The position numbers were made by a program, and so were the translations under genes. From a virus (Duplodnaviria > Heunggongvirae > Uroviricota > Caudoviricetes), in IMG/VR virus record IMGVR_UViG_2563366937_000004, positions 1-6,621 of that record: DNA of 6,621 nucleotides; one strand, 5' to 3'. The notes below the pieces were generated by a model that saw only the letters and a program-made list of their open reading frames with translations, was not told the DNA's origin and searched no databases. Positions 1-6,621 of the stretch are shown piece by piece (position 1 is the first letter of the stretch; each line of letters starts with the position of its first letter).

Positions 1-760
1 ATCCGAGCCTCTCGTCAAACTGCTGGAGGAAAATGCTTATCGTGAGCTTATCTGGCGTCAGCGTGTGAATGAGGCCGCACGGGCGGTGATGCTGGCCTGT
101 GCCACCGGTAATGACCTTGATGTGATTGGTGCCAATTACAACACCACACGCCTGATTATCACCCCGGCAGATGATTCGACCCTCCCGCCGACACCGGCCG
201 TGATGGAATCTGACACCGATTATCGTCTGCGTATTCAGCAGGCGTTTGAAGGTTTAAGCGTCGCCGGGTCGGTGGGAGCCTATCAGTATCATGGTCGCAG
301 TGCCGACGGGCGTGTCGCGGATATCTCTGTCACCAGTCCGTCTCCGGCCTGTGTCACTATCTCCGTGCTGTCCCGCGAAAATAACGGTGTCGCATCCGAA
401 GACCTGCTGGCGGTGGTGCGTAACGCCCTTAATGGCGAGGACGTCAGGCCGGTGGCCGACCGCGTGACCGTGCAGTCTGCCGCCATTGTTGAATACCAGA
501 TAAACGCCACGCTGTATCTTTACCCTGGTCCCGAAAGCGAACCCATTCGCGCGGCCGCCGTGAAAAAGCTGGAAGCGTACATCACGGCACAGCACCGGCT
601 GGGGCGCGACATCCGTCTGTCTGCCATTTATGCCGCTTTGCATGTGGAAGGTGTGCAGCGTGTCGAACTGGCTGCACCGCTGGCCGACATCGTGCTCAAC
701 AGTACGCAGGCGTCTTTCTGTACCGAATACCGCGTCGTGACCGGAGGCTCGGATGAGTGA
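1..760 (+). CDS. J: Baseplate assembly protein J (gpJ-like), 5'-truncated by the window edge. The reading frame is open from position 2 through the TGA at 758-760.
   Basis: The frame containing the 65..760 ORF has no stop back to position 2, so the gene starts upstream of the window. Codon usage is GC-rich and enterobacterial. It sits immediately upstream of an I-like gene with an overlapping ATGA junction and of H, G and FI in P2 order. The call rests mainly on synteny and size, not on a search. Confidence 0.8.
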   Translation, partial: SEPLVKLLEENAYRELIWRQRVNEAARAVMLACATGNDLDVIGANYNTTRLIITPADDSTLPPTPAVMESDTDYRLRIQQAFEGLSVAGSVGAYQYHGRSADGRVADISVTSPSPACVTISVLSRENNGVASEDLLAVVRNALNGEDVRPVADRVTVQSAAIVEYQINATLYLYPGPESEPIRAAAVKKLEAYITAQHRLGRDIRLSAIYAALHVEGVQRVELAAPLADIVLNSTQASFCTEYRVVTGGSDE

Positions 761-1283
761 TTCGCGACTGCTGCCGACCGGCTCATCACCGCTTGAGGTC
801 GCCGCCGCAAAAGCCTGTGCGGAAATTGAAAAGACACCGGTCAGTATTCGTGAGCTGTGGAACCCGGACACCTGCCCGGCAAATCTGCTGCCGTGGCTGG
901 CGTGGGCGTTTTCGGTCGACAGGTGGGATGAAAAGTGGCCGGAAGCAACAAAACGCGCCGTTATCCGCGATGCCTATTTCATCCACTGTCATAAAGGCAC
1001 TATCGGCGCAATCCGGCGTGTGGTGGAGCCGCTCGGCTATCTCATTAACGTAAAGGAATGGTGGGAGACAAACGACCCGGCCGGAACCTTTCGCCTTGAT
1101 ATCGGTGTGCTGGAAAGCGGTATCACAGAGGAGATGTATCTGGAAATGGAACGGCTGATTGCCGATGCCAAACCCGCAAGTCGCCACCTTATCGGCCTGA
1201 ACATTATCCAGGACATTCCCGGCTGTCTGTATACAGGCGGTGTGGTCTGTGATGGTGATGTTATTACTGTTTATCCCGGATAA
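753..1283 (+). CDS. I: Baseplate protein I (gpI-like), 176 aa.
   Basis: ATG at 753 overlaps the J stop (ATGAGTGA), with GGAGG at 743-747 as the Shine-Dalgarno. The 176-aa length matches P2 gpI as I recall it. Its position between J and H fits the P2 gene order. Confidence 0.8.
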   Translation: MSDSRLLPTGSSPLEVAAAKACAEIEKTPVSIRELWNPDTCPANLLPWLAWAFSVDRWDEKWPEATKRAVIRDAYFIHCHKGTIGAIRRVVEPLGYLINVKEWWETNDPAGTFRLDIGVLESGITEEMYLEMERLIADAKPASRHLIGLNIIQDIPGCLYTGGVVCDGDVITVYPG

Positions 1284-1293
1284 GTGAGAAACA

Positions 1294-3912
1294 ATGAGCA
1301 CGAAATTTAAAACCGTTATCACTACTGCCGGAGCCGCAAAGCTGGCAGCCGCCACTGTCCCCGGCGGGAAAAAAGTAACCCTGTCTGCAATGGCCGTGGG
1401 TGACGGTAATGGCAAATTGCCGGTGCCGGATGCCGGTCAGACGAAACTGGTGCATGAGGTCTGGCGTCACGCCCTGAATAAAGTCAGCGTGGATAATAAG
1501 AATAAAAACTATATCGTGGCTGAACTGGTTGTACCGCCCGAAGTGGGCGGCTTCTGGATGCGTGAGCTTGGCCTGTATGACGATGCCGGAACACTGATTG
1601 CGGTCGCCAACATGGCAGAAAGCTATAAGCCTGAACTCGCTGAAGGCTCCGGGCGTGCGCAGACCTGCCGCATGGTTATTATTGTCAGTAACGTGGCGTC
1701 CGTTGAGCTGAGTATTGATGCCAGCACAGTGATGGCGACGCAGGATTACGTCGATGACAAAATCGCAGAACATGAGCAGTCCCGCCGCCATCCTGACGCC
1801 ACGCTGACAGAAAAAGGCTTTACTCAGTTAAGCAGTGCAACAAACAGCACCAGTGAGTCATTGGCGGCAACGCCAAAAGCGGTCAAGGCAGCAAATGACA
1901 ACGCAAATTCACGTCTGGCGAAAAATCAGAATGGTGCAGATATCCAGGATAAATCAGCTTTTCTGGACAATGTTGGCGTTACCAGCCTGACGTTTATGAA
2001 AAACAATGGCGAAATGCCGCTTGATGCCGACCTGAATACATTTGGTCCTGTTAAGGCTTATCTGGGGATCTGGTCTAAAGCTACCTCAACTAACGCAACA
2101 CTGGAGAAAAATTTCCCGGAAGATAATGCTGTCGGTGTGCTTGAGGTTTTTGCTGCCGGCAATTTTGCAGGTACGCAACGCTTTACCACGAGAGACGGCA
2201 ATGTATACATACGCAGACTCGCCAATAAGTGGAATGGCTCTGATGGTCCGTGGGGCATATGGCGTCACACTCAATCAGCTACCCGCCCTTTGAGTACGAC
2301 TATAGACCTGAATACGCTTGGAGCCGCCGAACATCTTGGTTTATGGCGTAACAGTAGCTCGGCTATAGCTTCATATGAACGCAATTATCCAGAGGAAGGC
2401 GGCTTTGCTCAGGGGACGCTTGAGATCCTCGAAGGCGGGAATTATGGAAGAACGCAACGTTATACCACTCGCCGTGGAAATATGTATGTCCGCTGCCTTG
2501 CGGCAAGCTGGGATGCATCAAATCCGCAGTGGGAACCGTGGTTAAGAGTCGGTCATCAGTCAGAGAGTCGTTATTACGAAGGTGATTTAAATGTTCTAAC
2601 CGACCCCGGTATTTACAGTGTTACAGGAAAGGCAACAAACGGTCCGATGCTGGACACCGTTGGCGCGACACTACTTGGGATACTGGAAGTAATCAGACGT
2701 TTTGATGGTGTGTCTGTCTGGCAGCGTTACACAACCACAGGGAAATCAGAAACCACACAGGGGCGCACTTTTGAGCGCGTCTACGCCGGGAGCAAATGGA
2801 CCGAATGGCGAGAAGTATATAACTCCTTTTCGTTGCCTCTGAATCTGGGCATCGGTGGCGCAGTGGCAAAACTATCCAGTCTGGACTGGCAGACCTACGA
2901 CTTTGTGCCGGGCAGTCTGATAACCGTTCGGCTTGATAACATGACCAACATTCCCGACGGTATGGACTGGGGCGTCATTGATGGCAACCTGATAAACATC
3001 GCAGTGGGTCCGAGTGATGATTCCGGTACGGGGCGCTCAATGCATGTATGGCGCAGCACTGTAAGTAAAGCCAACTACCGCTTTTTTATGGCGCGCATTT
3101 CAGGAAATCCGGGAAGCCGCACGATTACAGCAAGACGAGTACCAATCATTGACGAAGCCCAGACATGGGGCGCGAAACAGACATTCAGCGGTGGCCTTTC
3201 AGGTGAGCTGTCCGGCAATGCTGCTACAGCAACAAAGCTGAAAACGGCAAGGACAATTAACGGCGTAAAATTTGACGGCTCGGCAAATATTGAAGCGTTT
3301 CCGCCAGGTGTTCCGCTGCCGTGGCCATCAGATACACCACCTGCAGGCTATGCAATTATGCAAGGCCAGACGTTTGATAAAGCAGCATATCCGAAACTGG
3401 CTATTGCCTATCCTTCTGGTGTTATTCCTGATATGCGCGGCTGGACAATCAAGGGCAAACCCGCCAGTGGGCGAGCCGTATTGTCACAGGAACAGGACGG
3501 GATTAAATCACATACTCACAGTGCCAGTGCGTCAAATACGGACTTAGGAACGAAAACGACCAGTTCATTTGATTACGGCACGAAGACAGTCAGTACGTTT
3601 AACTACGGAACAAAAACCACTAATACCACTGGTAACCATACACATACCATTTACAGAGGGAATGCCAATACTAATGGTGAAACCGGTAAAACAGGCTTTG
3701 ACAACCCATCGTTTAATGGCACATCAGGAGCTGCCGGGAATCATGCCCACACGGTAGATATTGGTGCACATAATCATACTGTTGGTATTGGTGCACATTC
3801 ACACACGGTTGCTATTGGCTCACACGGGCACTCTATTACCGTTAATGCTACAGGTAATACAGAAAACACCGTCAAAAACATCGCATTTAACTATATTGTG
3901 AGGCTTGCATAA
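1294..3912 (+). CDS. H: Tail fiber protein H (gpH-like), 872 aa, mosaic: P2-type N-terminal anchor, three tandem knob-like domains, and a C-terminal His-rich receptor-binding tip of T-even gp37/gp12 type.
   Basis: The N-terminus ([20 protein letters not shown] ... [37 protein letters not shown] ... [21 protein letters not shown]) matches the conserved P2 gpH N-terminal domain from memory. The C-terminus carries GTKT repeats and HxH repeats ([35 protein letters not shown]). It is the largest ORF, sits directly upstream of a Tfa-type chaperone gene, and its stop overlaps the G start. Confidence 0.9.
2029..2823 (+). repeat. Three tandem protein-level repeats of about 80 aa inside H (about aa 246-328, 338-421 and 430-510), each starting with a DLN[TV]L motif: knob-like tail fiber domains.
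   Basis: Aligning by eye, each copy shares DLNTxG ... G(I/L)W ... N(F/Y)PE ... G(V/T)LE(V/I) ... G(T/R)TQR(F/Y)TTRxGN(V/M)Y(I/V)R ... W ... W. Copies 1 and 2 are close; copy 3 is more diverged. Confidence 0.6.
3547..3618 (+). repeat. In-frame tandem 30-bp repeat, about 2.5 copies, encoding [10 protein letters not shown] / [10 protein letters not shown] / GTKTT within the H tip.
   Basis: Direct reading: ggaacgaaaacgaccagttcatttgattac / ggcacgaagacagtcagtacgtttaactac / ggaacaaaaaccact. Confidence 0.7.
3757..3837 (+). repeat. In-frame tandem 27-bp repeat, 3 copies, encoding the His-box units DIGAHNHTV / GIGAHSHTV / [10 protein letters not shown] further diverged unit GNHAHTV lies immediately upstream.
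   Basis: Direct reading: gatattggtgcacataatcatactgtt / ggtattggtgcacattcacacacggtt / gctattggctcacacgggcactctatt. Confidence 0.75.
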
Positions 3913-4490
3913 TGGCTTTCAGAATGAGTGCAGAAGCACAAACTATCCGCGTATTTAATTTACTTGATGGAACCAATGAATTTATTGGGGAAAGTGATGC
4001 GTATATTCCACCGTATACAGGTCTGCCTGCAAACAGTACAGATATTGCGCCGCCTGATATTCCTGCTGGTTATGCAGCCGTTTTCAATGCAGATGAAATG
4101 AAATGGGAACTGATGGAAGACCATCGCGGAAAGACCGTCTATGAAACGAAAACGGGAGCAGCCATTTATATTTCTGAACTTGGCGTATTACCTCCAGACG
4201 TGACAGCTATTTCCCCGGAGGGGGATTATCAGAAATGGAACGGAAATGCGTGGGTGAATGATGAGAATGCAGAGCGTGATGCACTTGTCAGAGCGGCGGA
4301 GTCTCAGAAGAAAGAGCTGATTGCATATGCAGGTGAAATTATTGCCACGCTGCAGGATGCTGTCGATTTAGATATGGCTACCGAGGAAGAAAAGTTAAGT
4401 CTGACACACTGGAAAAAATACCGTGTGCTACTGAATCGCGTTCAGCCGGAAGATGCTCCGGATATAGAATGGCCGGAAATGCCGCGATAA
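3912..4490 (+). CDS. G: Tail fiber assembly protein / chaperone (gpG, Tfa family), 192 aa.
   Basis: ATG at 3912 overlaps the H stop (TAATG). It lies immediately downstream of the tail fiber gene. The C-terminus ([26 protein letters not shown]) resembles the conserved Tfa C-terminal motif found in P2 G, lambda Tfa and Mu U-type chaperones. Confidence 0.85.
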
Positions 4491-4504
4491 ATTGTATTAG
4501 CTCG

Positions 4505-4575
4505 GATGTGAGTTTACACATCTATAGCACAGAGTAAAACCTAATCTGGCTGTCCGCTCTGTGCTAGGAGCGGAC
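4505..4575 (+). promoter_or_regulatory. Cluster of inverted repeats just downstream of G: gatgtg-N6-cacatc (4505-4522), and a 9-bp GC-rich stem tgtccgctc / gagcggaca (4551-4559 / 4568-4576) whose left arm can alternatively pair with agcacagag (4526-4534).
   Basis: Reverse-complement matches checked by hand. No U-tract follows the GC-rich stem, so it is not a canonical intrinsic terminator. It could be an operator, an RNA structure or a weak terminator or attenuator. Confidence 0.3.
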
Positions 4576-4599
4576 ATTACCAAGTAACATGCCTTAATC

Positions 4600-4746
4600 A
4601 AAAGGAAATGGTTAATATATGCCATCATTGTTTGAAAAATACGCAGTCATATATTGCTATGAACATTGTTGGTGCATTAATTTGCTTAAGAAACTACAAT
4701 TAAGCATCATAAAACACTCTTATGACTTTTAAGGCTCTACCGTATC
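4600..4746 (+). promoter_or_regulatory. AT-rich leader upstream of the cargo operon; possible own promoter. No compelling -35/-10 pair was identified.
   Basis: A roughly 250-bp non-coding AT-rich gap separates the G stop from the first cargo ORF. Candidate hexamers (TTGAAA at 4632-4637, TACAAT at 4695-4700) exist, but their spacing is not canonical. Confidence 0.2.
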
Positions 4747-5154
4747 ATGGCTAAGCGGATTCCTGGTGTTAGTAAAGAATGGTCTAACTATCTCCTTTGT
4801 TTATTATTACATATGTCTTTACCTCTCTTACCTTTGGGGTTCGAGACACTTGTGCGTTCCGATCACTTGCCATCAATACAAACATTAAATATTACAGCGG
4901 CGTTTTATGCGATCTCGATAGGGCTTTCTTCTAAGAACGTTGCTATGTTTGGTTTGGGTATATTCGTGAGCATTTGTTTCTCTGTTGTATTTGGGATTGT
5001 TTCTTCAAATCCTAATTCTGATCCTAATCTTAATTTTAATGATAACTTGTATTTTTATTCTCCAATTGCGTGTATTGTTGCTATATTTGTTATACATGCA
5101 TGTGAACGATATAACAGGCATGTTGCTGATTGTACACCATTTTTTGAGTTTTAA
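4747..5154 (+). CDS. Hypothetical small multi-pass inner-membrane protein, 135 aa, about 4 predicted TM helices.
   Basis: A 135-aa ORF in AT-rich DNA, where random ORFs are short. Hydrophobic segments: LLCLLLHMSLPLLPLGF, ITAAFYAISIGL, VAMFGLGIFVSICFSVVFGIVS, PIACIVAIFVIHAC. The N-terminus is positively charged (AKRIPGVSKEW). The Shine-Dalgarno is weak (AAGG at 4731-4734), so the exact start is uncertain; ATG 4813 is an alternative. Confidence 0.55.
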   Translation: MAKRIPGVSKEWSNYLLCLLLHMSLPLLPLGFETLVRSDHLPSIQTLNITAAFYAISIGLSSKNVAMFGLGIFVSICFSVVFGIVSSNPNSDPNLNFNDNLYFYSPIACIVAIFVIHACERYNRHVADCTPFFEF

Positions 5155-5163
5155 GGGGGTGCT

Positions 5164-5655
5164 ATGATTGATACAATTATCCCAGTAATACTATCAATTC
5201 TCCCGGCAATACTATCTATATTTAGCTTAGTAGCTGTTTTTATAGGTGCATTAGTATCTATCAGGTCTGTTAAAAAAAGACGTGAAATAGAAGTTCAGCT
5301 TTTTAATGAGATAATAAATCAACAAATTAAACAAACTAAAAGCAACCGTAAAAAGGATCTTGAAAATAGTGTTAATGAAATAGAAAATGAACTCAAGAGA
5401 AGAGTTGATATTTTGAATAAAATGCAAAAAGATCTAGAAGCAGTTTCAGAGAACAAATACTATTTTGATAAAGCAAAATTTCTTCGAAATGTCAAGTATG
5501 GAGAGTATTTATTAGAGATAAATGAAGCTGTGAATAATATTGATAATAAAAACAAACACTTACTAAATAACGCTCTTAATCAAAGCTCTGAGATTGGAAA
5601 AGTAAGATATCTTGGAAGAATAACAAAGGAAGCACTGGAAAAAACAGTAGGCTGA
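5164..5655 (+). CDS. Hypothetical membrane-anchored coiled-coil protein, 163 aa: one N-terminal TM helix followed by a charged K/E/N-rich, probably alpha-helical domain.
   Basis: Strong Shine-Dalgarno AAGGGGG (5153-5159) sits 4 nt before ATG 5164 and overlaps the upstream gene's TAA (5152-5154), indicating translational coupling. The TM segment is IIPVILSILPAILSIFSLVAVFIGALVSI, followed by RSVKKRRE (positive-inside) and then a heptad-like charged sequence. Confidence 0.65.
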   Translation: MIDTIIPVILSILPAILSIFSLVAVFIGALVSIRSVKKRREIEVQLFNEIINQQIKQTKSNRKKDLENSVNEIENELKRRVDILNKMQKDLEAVSENKYYFDKAKFLRNVKYGEYLLEINEAVNNIDNKNKHLLNNALNQSSEIGKVRYLGRITKEALEKTVG

Positions 5656-5838
5656 TCATTTTTTCCGCTCGTAATAGATAAACTCAAAGGTTCTTTTTGA
5701 GAGCCTTTGAGTTTCAATCTTACCAATATTACTCACCATTTCTTTAGCAGCAATTTGGGGACTATAACTTCTACTTCTTGCTGTGAGTTCAACCGATGGA
5801 TACAACACATTGGCTAAAACGCCCTGTGGGTGATTCAT
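5656..5838 (-). CDS. Questionable small ORF (60 aa), convergent with the cargo operon; possible small protein or remnant.
   Basis: ORF bounded by an in-frame stop 2 codons upstream of its ATG. There is no convincing Shine-Dalgarno. Its stop abuts the stop of the 5164..5655 gene within the palindrome TGATCA (5653-5658). GC content is intermediate. No recognisable motifs. Confidence 0.2.
   Translation of the reverse strand: MNHPQGVLANVLYPSVELTARSRSYSPQIAAKEMVSNIGKIETQRLSKRTFEFIYYERKK
5682..5712 (+). terminator. Hairpin (9-bp stem actcaaagg / cctttgagt, 13-nt loop) 27 nt downstream of the cargo operon stop; weak terminator candidate.
   Basis: Reverse-complement arms verified by hand. The loop is large and the downstream T-tract is poor, so confidence is low. 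Confidence 0.25.
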
Positions 5839-5898
5839 AGTCTAGCGTTTGGACTCCGTAAATTCACAGTTGGAAACTGAGCGAGTACAAATCAAGGC

Positions 5899-5926
5899 AG
5901 GCGGGCTGATTGCCCGCCTTTTCTTT
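5899..5926 (+). terminator. Rho-independent terminator: 8-bp GC-rich stem (aggcgggc / gcccgcct), 5-nt loop (tgatt), followed by a T-tract (tttctttat).
   Basis: Arms at 5899-5906 and 5912-5919 are exact reverse complements, with a T-rich run at 5919-5930. It is positioned where the tail fiber transcription unit would be expected to end, before the FI promoter. Confidence 0.6.
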
Positions 5927-6022
5927 ATCTGTTGTTTCATCCACTGGCCAGCCAGGCCAAATAGCGTCTCATGCTCTGCACAACAGAAAATAGTTGCACC
6001 CATTAACCACGGAGTTAAACGG
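5927..6022 (+). promoter_or_regulatory. Putative late promoter and leader of the tail sheath operon, with FI Shine-Dalgarno GGAG at 6011-6014. Contains inverted repeats ctgttgt (5929-5935) / acaacag (5980-5986) and tggcc (5945-5949) / ggcca (5955-5959).
   Basis: Position between a terminator and FI start. In P2, FI heads a separate late operon activated by Ogr. I could not find an exact TGT-N12-ACA Ogr-type site, so the promoter assignment is by position only. Confidence 0.3.
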
Positions 6023-6621
6023 ATGAGTGACTATCATCACGGCGTGCAGGTGCTGGAGATTAACGACGGCACCCGCGTCATTTCCACCGTATCCACTGCC
6101 ATTGTCGGCATGGTTTGCACTGCCAGCGATGCGGATGCGGAAACCTTCCCCCTCAATAAACCGGTGCTGATTACCAATGTGCAGAGCGCAATTGCAAAGG
6201 CCGGTAAAAAAGGCACGCTGGCGGCATCGTTGCAGGCCATCGCCGACCAGTCAAAACCAGTGACTGTTGTTGTGCGCGTGGAAGACGGCACCGGCGAAGA
6301 CGAAGAAACGAAACTCGCGCAGACCGTTTCCAATATCATCGGCACCACCGACGAAAACGGTCAGTATACCGGACTGAAAGCCCTGCTGGCGGCAGAGTCG
6401 GTAACCGGTGTTAAACCGCGTATTCTCGGTGTGCCGGGACTGGACACCAAAGAGGTGGCTGTTGCACTGGCATCAGTCTGCCAGAAGCTGCGCGCTTTCG
6501 GGTATATCAGCGCATGGGGCTGTAAAACCATTTCCGAGGTGAAAGCCTACCGCCAGAATTTCAGCCAGCGTGAGCTGATGGTCATCTGGCCGGATTTCCT
6601 CGCATGGGATACGGTCACCAG
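6023..6621 (+). CDS. FI: Tail sheath protein FI (gpFI-like), 3'-truncated by the window edge.
   Basis: ATG 6023 lies 8 nt after GGAG. My own translation begins [52 protein letters not shown]..., which matches the P2 tail sheath N-terminus from memory. The frame stays open to the window end. It was not in the ORF table only because it has no stop in the window. Confidence 0.9.

Follow-up and report, generated by a model that had tools for sequence, protein, structure and literature searches.

A mobile two-gene membrane module in the G-FI slot of a P2-like prophage as a candidate anti-phage system

Lambda RexAB and Sucellos (SclAB) of Vibrio cholerae are two-gene modules that are carried on a prophage or on an integron cassette, and Rex and Sucellos have both been shown to require both of their genes (10.1101/2024.07.02.601686). 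In V. cholerae, 10-18% of the integron cassettes are anti-phage, including the two-gene membrane system Sucellos (10.1101/2024.07.02.601686). In addition, Z/fun of P2 has been named as a hotspot, and its P2 occupant blocks another phage, T5 (10.1101/2024.10.15.618418). A hotspot inside the P2 tail genes is also mentioned in a recent survey (PMC13586616). Here, a stretch of 6,621 nucleotides (nt) of Caudoviricetes DNA is described (IMG/VR record IMGVR_UViG_2563366937_000004, positions 1 to 6,621; called the window below), which is a stretch of a P2-like prophage with tail genes on both sides of a cargo segment, according to Pfam and the record annotation. The cargo encodes two membrane proteins on the plus strand, gene A (4747-5154) and gene B (5164-5655). 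The most likely role of this A-B pair, to which about an even chance is given, is protection of the lysogen from other phages or from mobile elements, in an abortive form with a membrane effector.

The cargo extends from 4491 to 5842 and is located between the P2 genes G and FI, at the position of the Z/fun hotspot. Its GC content is 33.7%, versus 51.7% for 1-4490 and 54.4% for 5843-6621, with a minimum of 0.26 when counted per 300 nt. The right edge lies at 5842/5843, and homology to other P2-like phages returns at 5843-5858. Over 3912-6621, the window is 96.9% identical to Peduovirus P24A7b (LR595887), and the cargo alone shares 99.6% identity with P24A7b and with prophages of two of 5426 complete Escherichia coli genomes. 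The G-FI interval was compared in five related phages and shows five occupancy states between conserved flanks. It is empty (128 nt) in Salmonella phage STYP1, and it contains a 184-aa gene in vB_EcoM-569R9, the 299-aa orf44 in Wphi, two genes on the minus strand in a P2 isolate and A plus B in P24A7b. As STYP1 has nothing in the slot and other phages have other genes there, the A-B pair is dispensable for the phage. The first-pass annotation of this DNA, made from the sequence alone, had described a sharp change in base composition and two open reading frames (ORFs) between G and FI, encoding a 135-aa multi-pass protein and a 163-aa protein with one transmembrane (TM) helix and a charged tail, and this agrees with the GC values, the ORF calls, the structure model of A and the residue counts. 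Its view of the G/FI junction as a site of variable cargo is borne out by the five-phage comparison, in which the content differs and the interval is not invariant. The annotated interval of 4491-5930 stands up to 5842; the last 88 bases (5843-5930) are conserved P2 backbone, and approximately 300 E. coli genomes match these and nothing else of that interval. The two genes had also been called translationally coupled; in the window a nine-base gap separates them without overlap, and in other taxa overlaps of 1-4 nt are found.

Gene A encodes a 135-aa predicted inner-membrane protein with four TM helices. The AlphaFold2 model has a mean predicted local distance difference test (pLDDT) score of 91.3 and a predicted template modelling (pTM) score of 0.83, with helices at residues 10-36, 44-61, 65-87 and 99-127. 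Both ends of A are predicted to be cytoplasmic, based on the N-terminal positive charges (MAKRIPGVSKEW) and the even number of helices. Across 49 aligned homologues, the residues H22, P26, L27, P29, E33, Y54, S62, G83, H117, E120, R121, Y122, N123 and H125 are invariant, and the H-x-x-E-R-Y-N-R-H run is located at the cytoplasmic end of helix 4. The homologues form 58 clusters, down to E=2e-12, and a copy that is 100% identical is present in Escherichia ruysiae. A corresponds to PHROG 22626 (E=4e-68), a family of unknown function. No match at threshold was observed for A in Pfam, NCBIfam, PDB or BFVD, no component hidden Markov model of PADLOC-DB v2.0.0 matched at E<=1, and a Foldseek search of the model against PDB and viral models gave no neighbour at E<=0.001. 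The family alignment shows recurrent weak matches to TM segments of MerC and OppC_N, all of which are under the cut-off. In GenBank LR595887, A is listed as a truncated ORF of 69 aa (L001, 5455-5664); the full protein of 135 aa, starting with MAKRIPG, is backed by RefSeq E. coli records and by the family alignment.

Gene B follows A after nine bases, which contain a GGGGG run resembling a Shine-Dalgarno sequence (TAAGGGGGTGCTATG). The 163-aa product is predicted to be bitopic, with an N-terminal TM helix (approximately residues 5-33), a KKRRE stop-transfer sequence and a charged helical stalk. The tail after KKRRE counts 130 residues, including 27 K/R and 20 D/E. Near the C-terminus, B of the window carries the motif L-N-Q140-S-S142-E-I-G145-K146-V-R-Y149-L-G-R152. 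Q140 is present in all 150 aligned members, S142 in 143, G145 in 134, R, K or Q at position 146 in 149, Y149 in 140 and K or R at position 152 in 136, and a juxtamembrane A-E pair is likewise conserved. Among 1.84 billion cluster representatives, 262 belong to the family at E<=0.001, and their median length is 127 aa, so the enterobacterial B carries a longer stalk. Together with the 58 homologue clusters of A, these 262 representatives indicate that both ORFs are real genes and not chance. Neither the protein of the window nor the family alignment, searched member by member, gave anything at threshold in Pfam or NCBIfam. The best match of B in PADLOC-DB v2.0.0 is noise (E=0.17), and the profile returns only coiled-coil noise from the PDB sequences. 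The AlphaFold2 model of B is all-helical and of low confidence (pLDDT 57). The positive charges would place the conserved patches of both A and B in the cytoplasm. Some homologues of B have additions past the motif: P0166 (273 aa) has a repeat region that looks by eye like tetratricopeptide repeats, P0137 (311 aa) has, also by eye, GKW-type repeats and extra hydrophobic segments, and the homologue at L018, 10393-10983, has a C-terminal extension of 70 aa in which the library scan found no domain.

In a scan of one genome per species, 26 loci were found that encode relatives of A. These are distributed over Gamma- and Betaproteobacteria, Gemmatimonadota, Chloroflexota, Planctomycetota, Verrucomicrobiota, Bacteroidota, Cyanobacteria and Ca. 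Stahlbacteria. A B-type partner, defined as a protein with an N-terminal TM helix and the C-terminal motif, begins a few bases past the stop of A, often overlapping it, in 23 of the 25 loci with readable downstream sequence, and these loci span at least eight phyla. One exception is L020, where a bitopic partner with a weaker motif lies downstream of A. In a Saprospiraceae metagenome-assembled genome (MAG; L026, 8872-10154), the partner of A is a 246-aa protein with an N-terminal EAD11 domain (E=2e-17) followed by a central TM segment; this insertion has citrate synthase on one side and DUF2200/EF-P on the other, and no NTPase is encoded close by. A and B form an obligate pair and are co-translated.

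Five carriers share a conserved stretch of approximately 250 nt upstream of A and the hairpin that follows B. Besides the P2-like prophage of the window, these are a Morganella lambdoid prophage, with the pair flanked by Dam/DnaB and the DUF1367/NinG/Q region, a chromosomal island of E. coli, a Klebsiella element by umuDC and a resolvase, and a Pectobacterium integrative and conjugative element (ICE) with VirB-type transfer genes. In Luteimonas, A and B make up exactly one cassette of 896 nt, from attC to attC, in a chromosomal integron that has 27 attC copies over 16 kb. Complete attC-bounded A-B cassettes are also present in Pseudoalteromonas, Vibrio anguillarum and a Gemmatimonadales MAG; the attC-bounded homologue loci are L003, L004, L011 and L015. 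The integron of Luteimonas sp. MC1572 (L003, 1-16405) also holds several duplicated cassettes of approximately 413 nt and many small ORFs without a family. In the window itself, no attC-like site was found, and this copy does not have the form of an integron cassette.

The non-coding parts on both sides travel with the genes. The region 4581-4746 upstream of A on the plus strand is conserved, with a mean column identity of approximately 71% and long invariant runs among the prophage, lambdoid, island, Klebsiella and ICE copies. It contains putative sigma-70 elements: a candidate promoter with TTGTTT at 4628-4633, a 16-nt spacer and TATATT at 4650-4655, and a second candidate with an invariant AAACTACAAT and TACAAT at 4695-4700, while AAGG is located at 4731-4734. 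Downstream of B, a terminator-like hairpin lies at 5680-5714 on the plus strand, in which AAACTCAAAGG, a 13-nt loop and CCTTTGAGTTT form a perfect stem of 11 bp, followed by TTTC. The terminator scan was limited to loops of 8 nt and missed this hairpin, which was read directly from the sequence. The copies of the E. coli island and of Pectobacterium have kept it, and in Klebsiella the stem is changed on both arms. A-B is a self-contained, horizontally mobile two-gene unit with its own upstream region and terminator.

Multiple copies of the pair are located next to known defence genes. In one E. coli assembly, a Qat system (KAP NTPase, QatB, QueC, TatD) lies directly after A-B and is followed by a CBASS system with SLATT and SMODS, and in sister E. 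coli assemblies the pair is found by NERD-UvrD, T5orf172 and PLD-helicase genes. In another genome, Hachiman (HamA and helicase), AbiGi and a resolvase are directly upstream of A-B. Mrr_cat and DUF4760 proteins are encoded upstream of the pair in Klebsiella, and a MmeI-type restriction enzyme, a helicase and T5orf172 in Budviciaceae. Type III restriction-modification models were found in a pooled PADLOC scan of neighbours, and in the Stahlbacteria MAG two ORFs upstream of A appear to encode such a system. On one metagenome contig, the pair is surrounded by IS6/Tn3 fragments, and a GAAD/GASH/DO-GTPase2 system is encoded at a distance of 5 kb. The island copies of E. coli have a gene of the H-NS family beside this AT-rich module, approximately 700 nt downstream on the opposite strand (L045, 8186-8659; L047, 8186-8656; L048, 2092-2685). 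The association with defence genes is suggestive and is not uniform among the copies.

A possible mechanism would assign different roles to the two proteins. A would be the effector, a four-helix bundle with an invariant cluster of His, Glu, Arg, Tyr and Asn at the cytoplasmic face that could act as a channel or as a membrane-embedded catalytic or metal site. B would be anchored by its single TM helix with the tail in the cytoplasm and could act as sensor or regulator through the coiled-coil stalk and the invariant Q-x-S-x-x-G-R-x-x-Y-x-x-K end. The conserved cytoplasmic patches of A and B may touch each other, and upon infection B would release or activate A, by which the membrane would be compromised and the infection aborted. 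The EAD11 partner, the variable stalk length and the C-terminal extensions of B fit with this assignment of A as effector and B as sensor. A bolder proposal, which taken as a whole is rather doubtful, is that H22, E33, H117, E120, R121, Y122, N123 and H125 of A and Q140, S142, G145, R146, Y149 and K152 of B build one composite site at the cytoplasmic face, forming a metal-dependent enzyme or a gated channel, and that the module is ancient, was carried into most bacterial phyla by integrons and phages, and stems from a membrane-tethered HEPN-like ancestor whose RNase motif is left in about a tenth of the family.

Several observations weigh against a role in defence. The A family was found in one of 50,697 phage records and in five IMG/VR contigs, a near-absence from phages, and the family is absent among 72,556 plasmids; the searches with the A profile consisted of one IMG/VR scan and one genome scan. 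Several copies have housekeeping neighbours only, with no defence gene near. The 104 neighbours at 15 chromosomal loci belong mostly to housekeeping families, with no more than a handful of matches to PADLOC models, and this pooled scan is weak evidence since it cannot tie the matches to individual loci. The principal hotspot described by Rousset et al. in 2022 is gpA-gpQ and not G-FI (PMC9122126). The argument for defence is one of guilt by association, and the invariant His/Glu cluster of A would suit a transporter or an enzyme equally. The model of B is too poor for any structural claim, and a consensus promoter scan of 4581-4746 gave nothing over the threshold. The first-pass annotation is to be read in this light. 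It had proposed for A-B a membrane module for abortive infection or exclusion, which the defence, integron and EAD11 contexts favour and the housekeeping copies, the rarity in phages and the location of the Rousset hotspot disfavour. It had also treated the locus as a P2 curiosity; the pair is indeed in a P2 slot, but the module spans phyla and is very rare in phages. Its statement that neither protein has a known family is matched by the searches of Pfam, NCBIfam and PADLOC and, for A, of Foldseek, which are empty at threshold. Also, no paper that names the A or B family was found in literature and supplement searches by accession and description.

Other functions can be proposed for the same features. 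H22, E33, H117, E120 and H125 in the four-TM bundle resemble a metal or proton site, and A-B could be a membrane accessory unrelated to phages: a small transporter or channel for metals or ions together with a regulatory subunit, a factor in membrane stress, or immunity to a membrane-targeting bacteriocin or to a toxin of the type VI secretion system (T6SS). The E. coli island copies beside the T6SS genes VasL, Hcp and TsiV and the several copies among metabolic genes agree with this, as do the weak recurrent MerC and OppC_N matches, but these and all other family matches are sub-threshold and show the typical hydrophobic bias, and the pair is also present in phyla and contexts without T6SS. 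The patchy spread by horizontal transfer, the restriction, Hachiman, Qat and CBASS neighbours and the EAD11 partner point to conflict systems instead, and an accessory role is considered unlikely. A slimmer chance is given to superinfection exclusion, in which A-B would keep the DNA of an incoming phage from entering through the inner membrane while the cell survives, as Sie/Imm-type prophage proteins do. Membrane defences that act at injection are known, such as SNIPE (PMC13190303) and Deva (10.1101/2024.07.02.601719), and here a predicted inner-membrane pair is carried on a prophage in the slot of the T5-blocking Z/fun of P2. However, exclusion proteins are usually narrow-range and phage-specific, whereas the catalytic-looking residues of this pair are invariant over at least eight phyla and most of its copies are located outside prophages.

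An equally slim prospect is that of an addiction module, comparable to toxin-antitoxin (TA) systems, in which A or B would be a membrane toxin that is checked by its partner and stabilises the array, prophage or island that carries it. Pfam, NCBIfam and PADLOC show no similarity to TA families, the two membrane proteins are about equal in size and have strongly conserved polar sites, unlike small hydrophobic toxins, and none are found on plasmids, where addiction modules thrive. On the other hand, the operon is compact with tight translational coupling, sedentary chromosomal integrons, in which TA cassettes are frequent (10.1101/2024.07.02.601686), carry the pair as one cassette, and copies are present on an ICE and beside resolvases and insertion sequence (IS) elements. 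TA function and defence can coexist and are not mutually exclusive. Finally, small membrane proteins in a phage may suggest a lysis or lysis-timing pair (holin/antiholin) or another need of P2-like phages, and one BFVD row is named 'holin family' (E=3.8). This explanation is hardly credible: the slot is located between tail operons, STYP1 has nothing in it and other P2-like phages carry unrelated genes there, most copies lie outside phages, and the Morganella prophage that carries the pair has a separate cassette with holin, lysozyme and spanin. A conserved holin/antiholin pair had been named beforehand as the finding that would speak against a defence module, and it is countered by the lack of any holin family match in Pfam or PHROGs and by the slot not being conserved. 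Defence of the lysogen is retained as the most likely function of A-B.

A trace of HEPN-like sequence is found in a minority of the B family. The pattern R-[ND]-x3-H is present in 18 of 152 members (approximately 12%), versus 2.2 expected and a maximum of 7 in 200 shuffles. In approximately 13 of these 18 members, the motif lies, by eye, at one shared position in the stalk, e.g., IRNKLVHG. Homologues with R-N-x3-H-[GD] are P0084, P0095, P0103, P0122, P0144, P0170, P0210 and P0220 and the proteins encoded at L012, 10384-10749, and L015, 4245-4622. Five such members match HEPN profiles with E-values of 3.5e-5 to 1.3e-3 and scores of 19-24 bits, versus cut-offs of 27-28. Compared to HEPN effectors (RiboL-PSP, Swt1, HepT and AbiJ-type), the matches all stay under the gathering scores of Pfam and extend over no more than the final third of the HEPN profiles, and the invariant motif Q-x-S-x-x-G-R-x-x-Y-x-x-K of the B family sits elsewhere and is not a HEPN feature. 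B of the window was rejected as a HEPN protein, having no HEPN match in Pfam and carrying LRNVKYG at residues 106-112, at about the corresponding place in the stalk, without the His of R-[ND]-x3-H. The trace hints at the origin of the family and not at membership: going by these motifs, the B family may descend from, or include, membrane-tethered HEPN-like RNases.

The left edge of the cargo is formed by a boundary element of approximately 85 nt (4491-4580), which reads TGTATTAGCTC...GCACAGAG...CCTAATCTG...GTCCGCTCTGTGCTAGGAGCGGACATT, ends with GTCCGCTCTGTGC.AGGAGCGGACATT and contains one hairpin of about 7-8 bp at approximately 4552-4575. This element is located upstream of A-B in five unrelated contexts and, in Enterobacterales, goes wherever the pair goes. 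It also edges other cargo, after G in P2-like phages, in a lambdoid moron region and beside the integrase in another prophage (loci with the element: L037, L052-L079, L005, L046 and L049). In E. coli, 1862 sites were found in 1504 of 5426 genomes, and they are never annotated. The sequences part company directly after GGAGCGGACATT of the element. A structured RNA was considered and rejected, with no Rfam match and no covariation or compensatory pairs, and the element may be a shared recombination joint or an insulator at moron boundaries. On the other side of the genes, the 3' tail of the cargo (5715-5842) is non-coding, and other copies of the module share approximately the first 80 nt of it. 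A minus-strand ORF of 60 aa at 5656-5838 (VUD39043 in LR595887) is broken by insertions or deletions in other copies, has no family match and is probably not a gene.

The genes around the cargo are those of a P2-like tail region. Upstream are a Baseplate_J gene (65-760), a Tail_P2_I gene (753-1283) and the tail fibre gene H (1294-3912) with tail fibre H domains, all with Pfam scores well over the cut-off, followed by the tail-fibre-assembly gene G (3912-4490; Pfam Caudo_TAP, 4e-41). Downstream, the sheath gene FI starts at 6024 according to the record annotation, and the backbone upstream of FI that lies outside the cargo (5843-5930) is conserved and has a bidirectional terminator-like hairpin at 5899-5919. 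A lower GC content (0.41-0.47) than in the rest of the tail operon is also observed at 3450-4200, which covers the 3' end of H and the start of G, and the end of H encodes His-rich G-x-H-x-H-T/S repeats. These features fit with the swapping of receptor-binding modules that has been reported for the Z/fun hotspot.

If the defence reading is true, A-B is a compact system with approximately 0.9 kb of coding sequence, whose components have no relatives in known systems and of which one component has no structural neighbour. Its size fits a single integron cassette, and its range extends from Escherichia to Chloroflexota and Cyanobacteria. The conserved polar residues are direct targets for mutation, which makes the mechanism readily testable. 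The distribution of A-B further shows that the minor hotspot in the P2 tail genes, integron cassettes and chromosomal defence islands tap one pool of modules, and the boundary element of approximately 85 nt at the edges of many prophage cargos may mark a route of module exchange.

Among the described systems, A-B can be compared with RexAB and the RexAB-like Sucellos, each of which has a four-TM partner of approximately 140 aa that is thought to act at the membrane and another partner that is a sensor or regulator. Homology to RexAB was rejected, as hhalign gave probabilities of 0.3% for A as a relative of RexB and 0.2% for B as a relative of RexA, and the four TM helices are the sole shared trait. 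RexA is a soluble protein of 279 aa, while members of the B family are membrane-anchored, helical and 120-160 aa long, and in A-B the gene of the membrane protein comes first. Kiwa (a four-TM KwaA with KwaB) and other membrane-effector systems in PADLOC likewise combine a small multi-pass protein with a partner in defence islands; KwaB is far larger than B, which is itself anchored in the membrane, and A has no match in PADLOC. For the EAD-coupled effectors (EAD11, PF19964), the A homologue with an EAD11-TM partner fits an effector that is recruited by an EAD-bearing sensor, but such a partner is present in one locus only, with no STAND NTPase near, and EAD11 is found neither in B of the window nor in the other scanned partners. 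P2 Z/fun and the other G-FI cargo occupy the same slot and are of low GC and non-essential, like the A-B segment, whereas the genes are unrelated and the DNA similarity is confined to the shared flanks; the P2 isolate compared has its two slot genes on the minus strand and A-B is on the plus strand. RexAB, Sucellos, Kiwa and Z/fun are the nearest systems by logic, and none of them is akin to A-B by sequence or detectable fold. A-B is better supported than most hypothetical genes in such hotspots and is one candidate among many. The small membrane module as cargo of prophages and integrons is already known as a kind, and its components here, A and B, belong to no described family.

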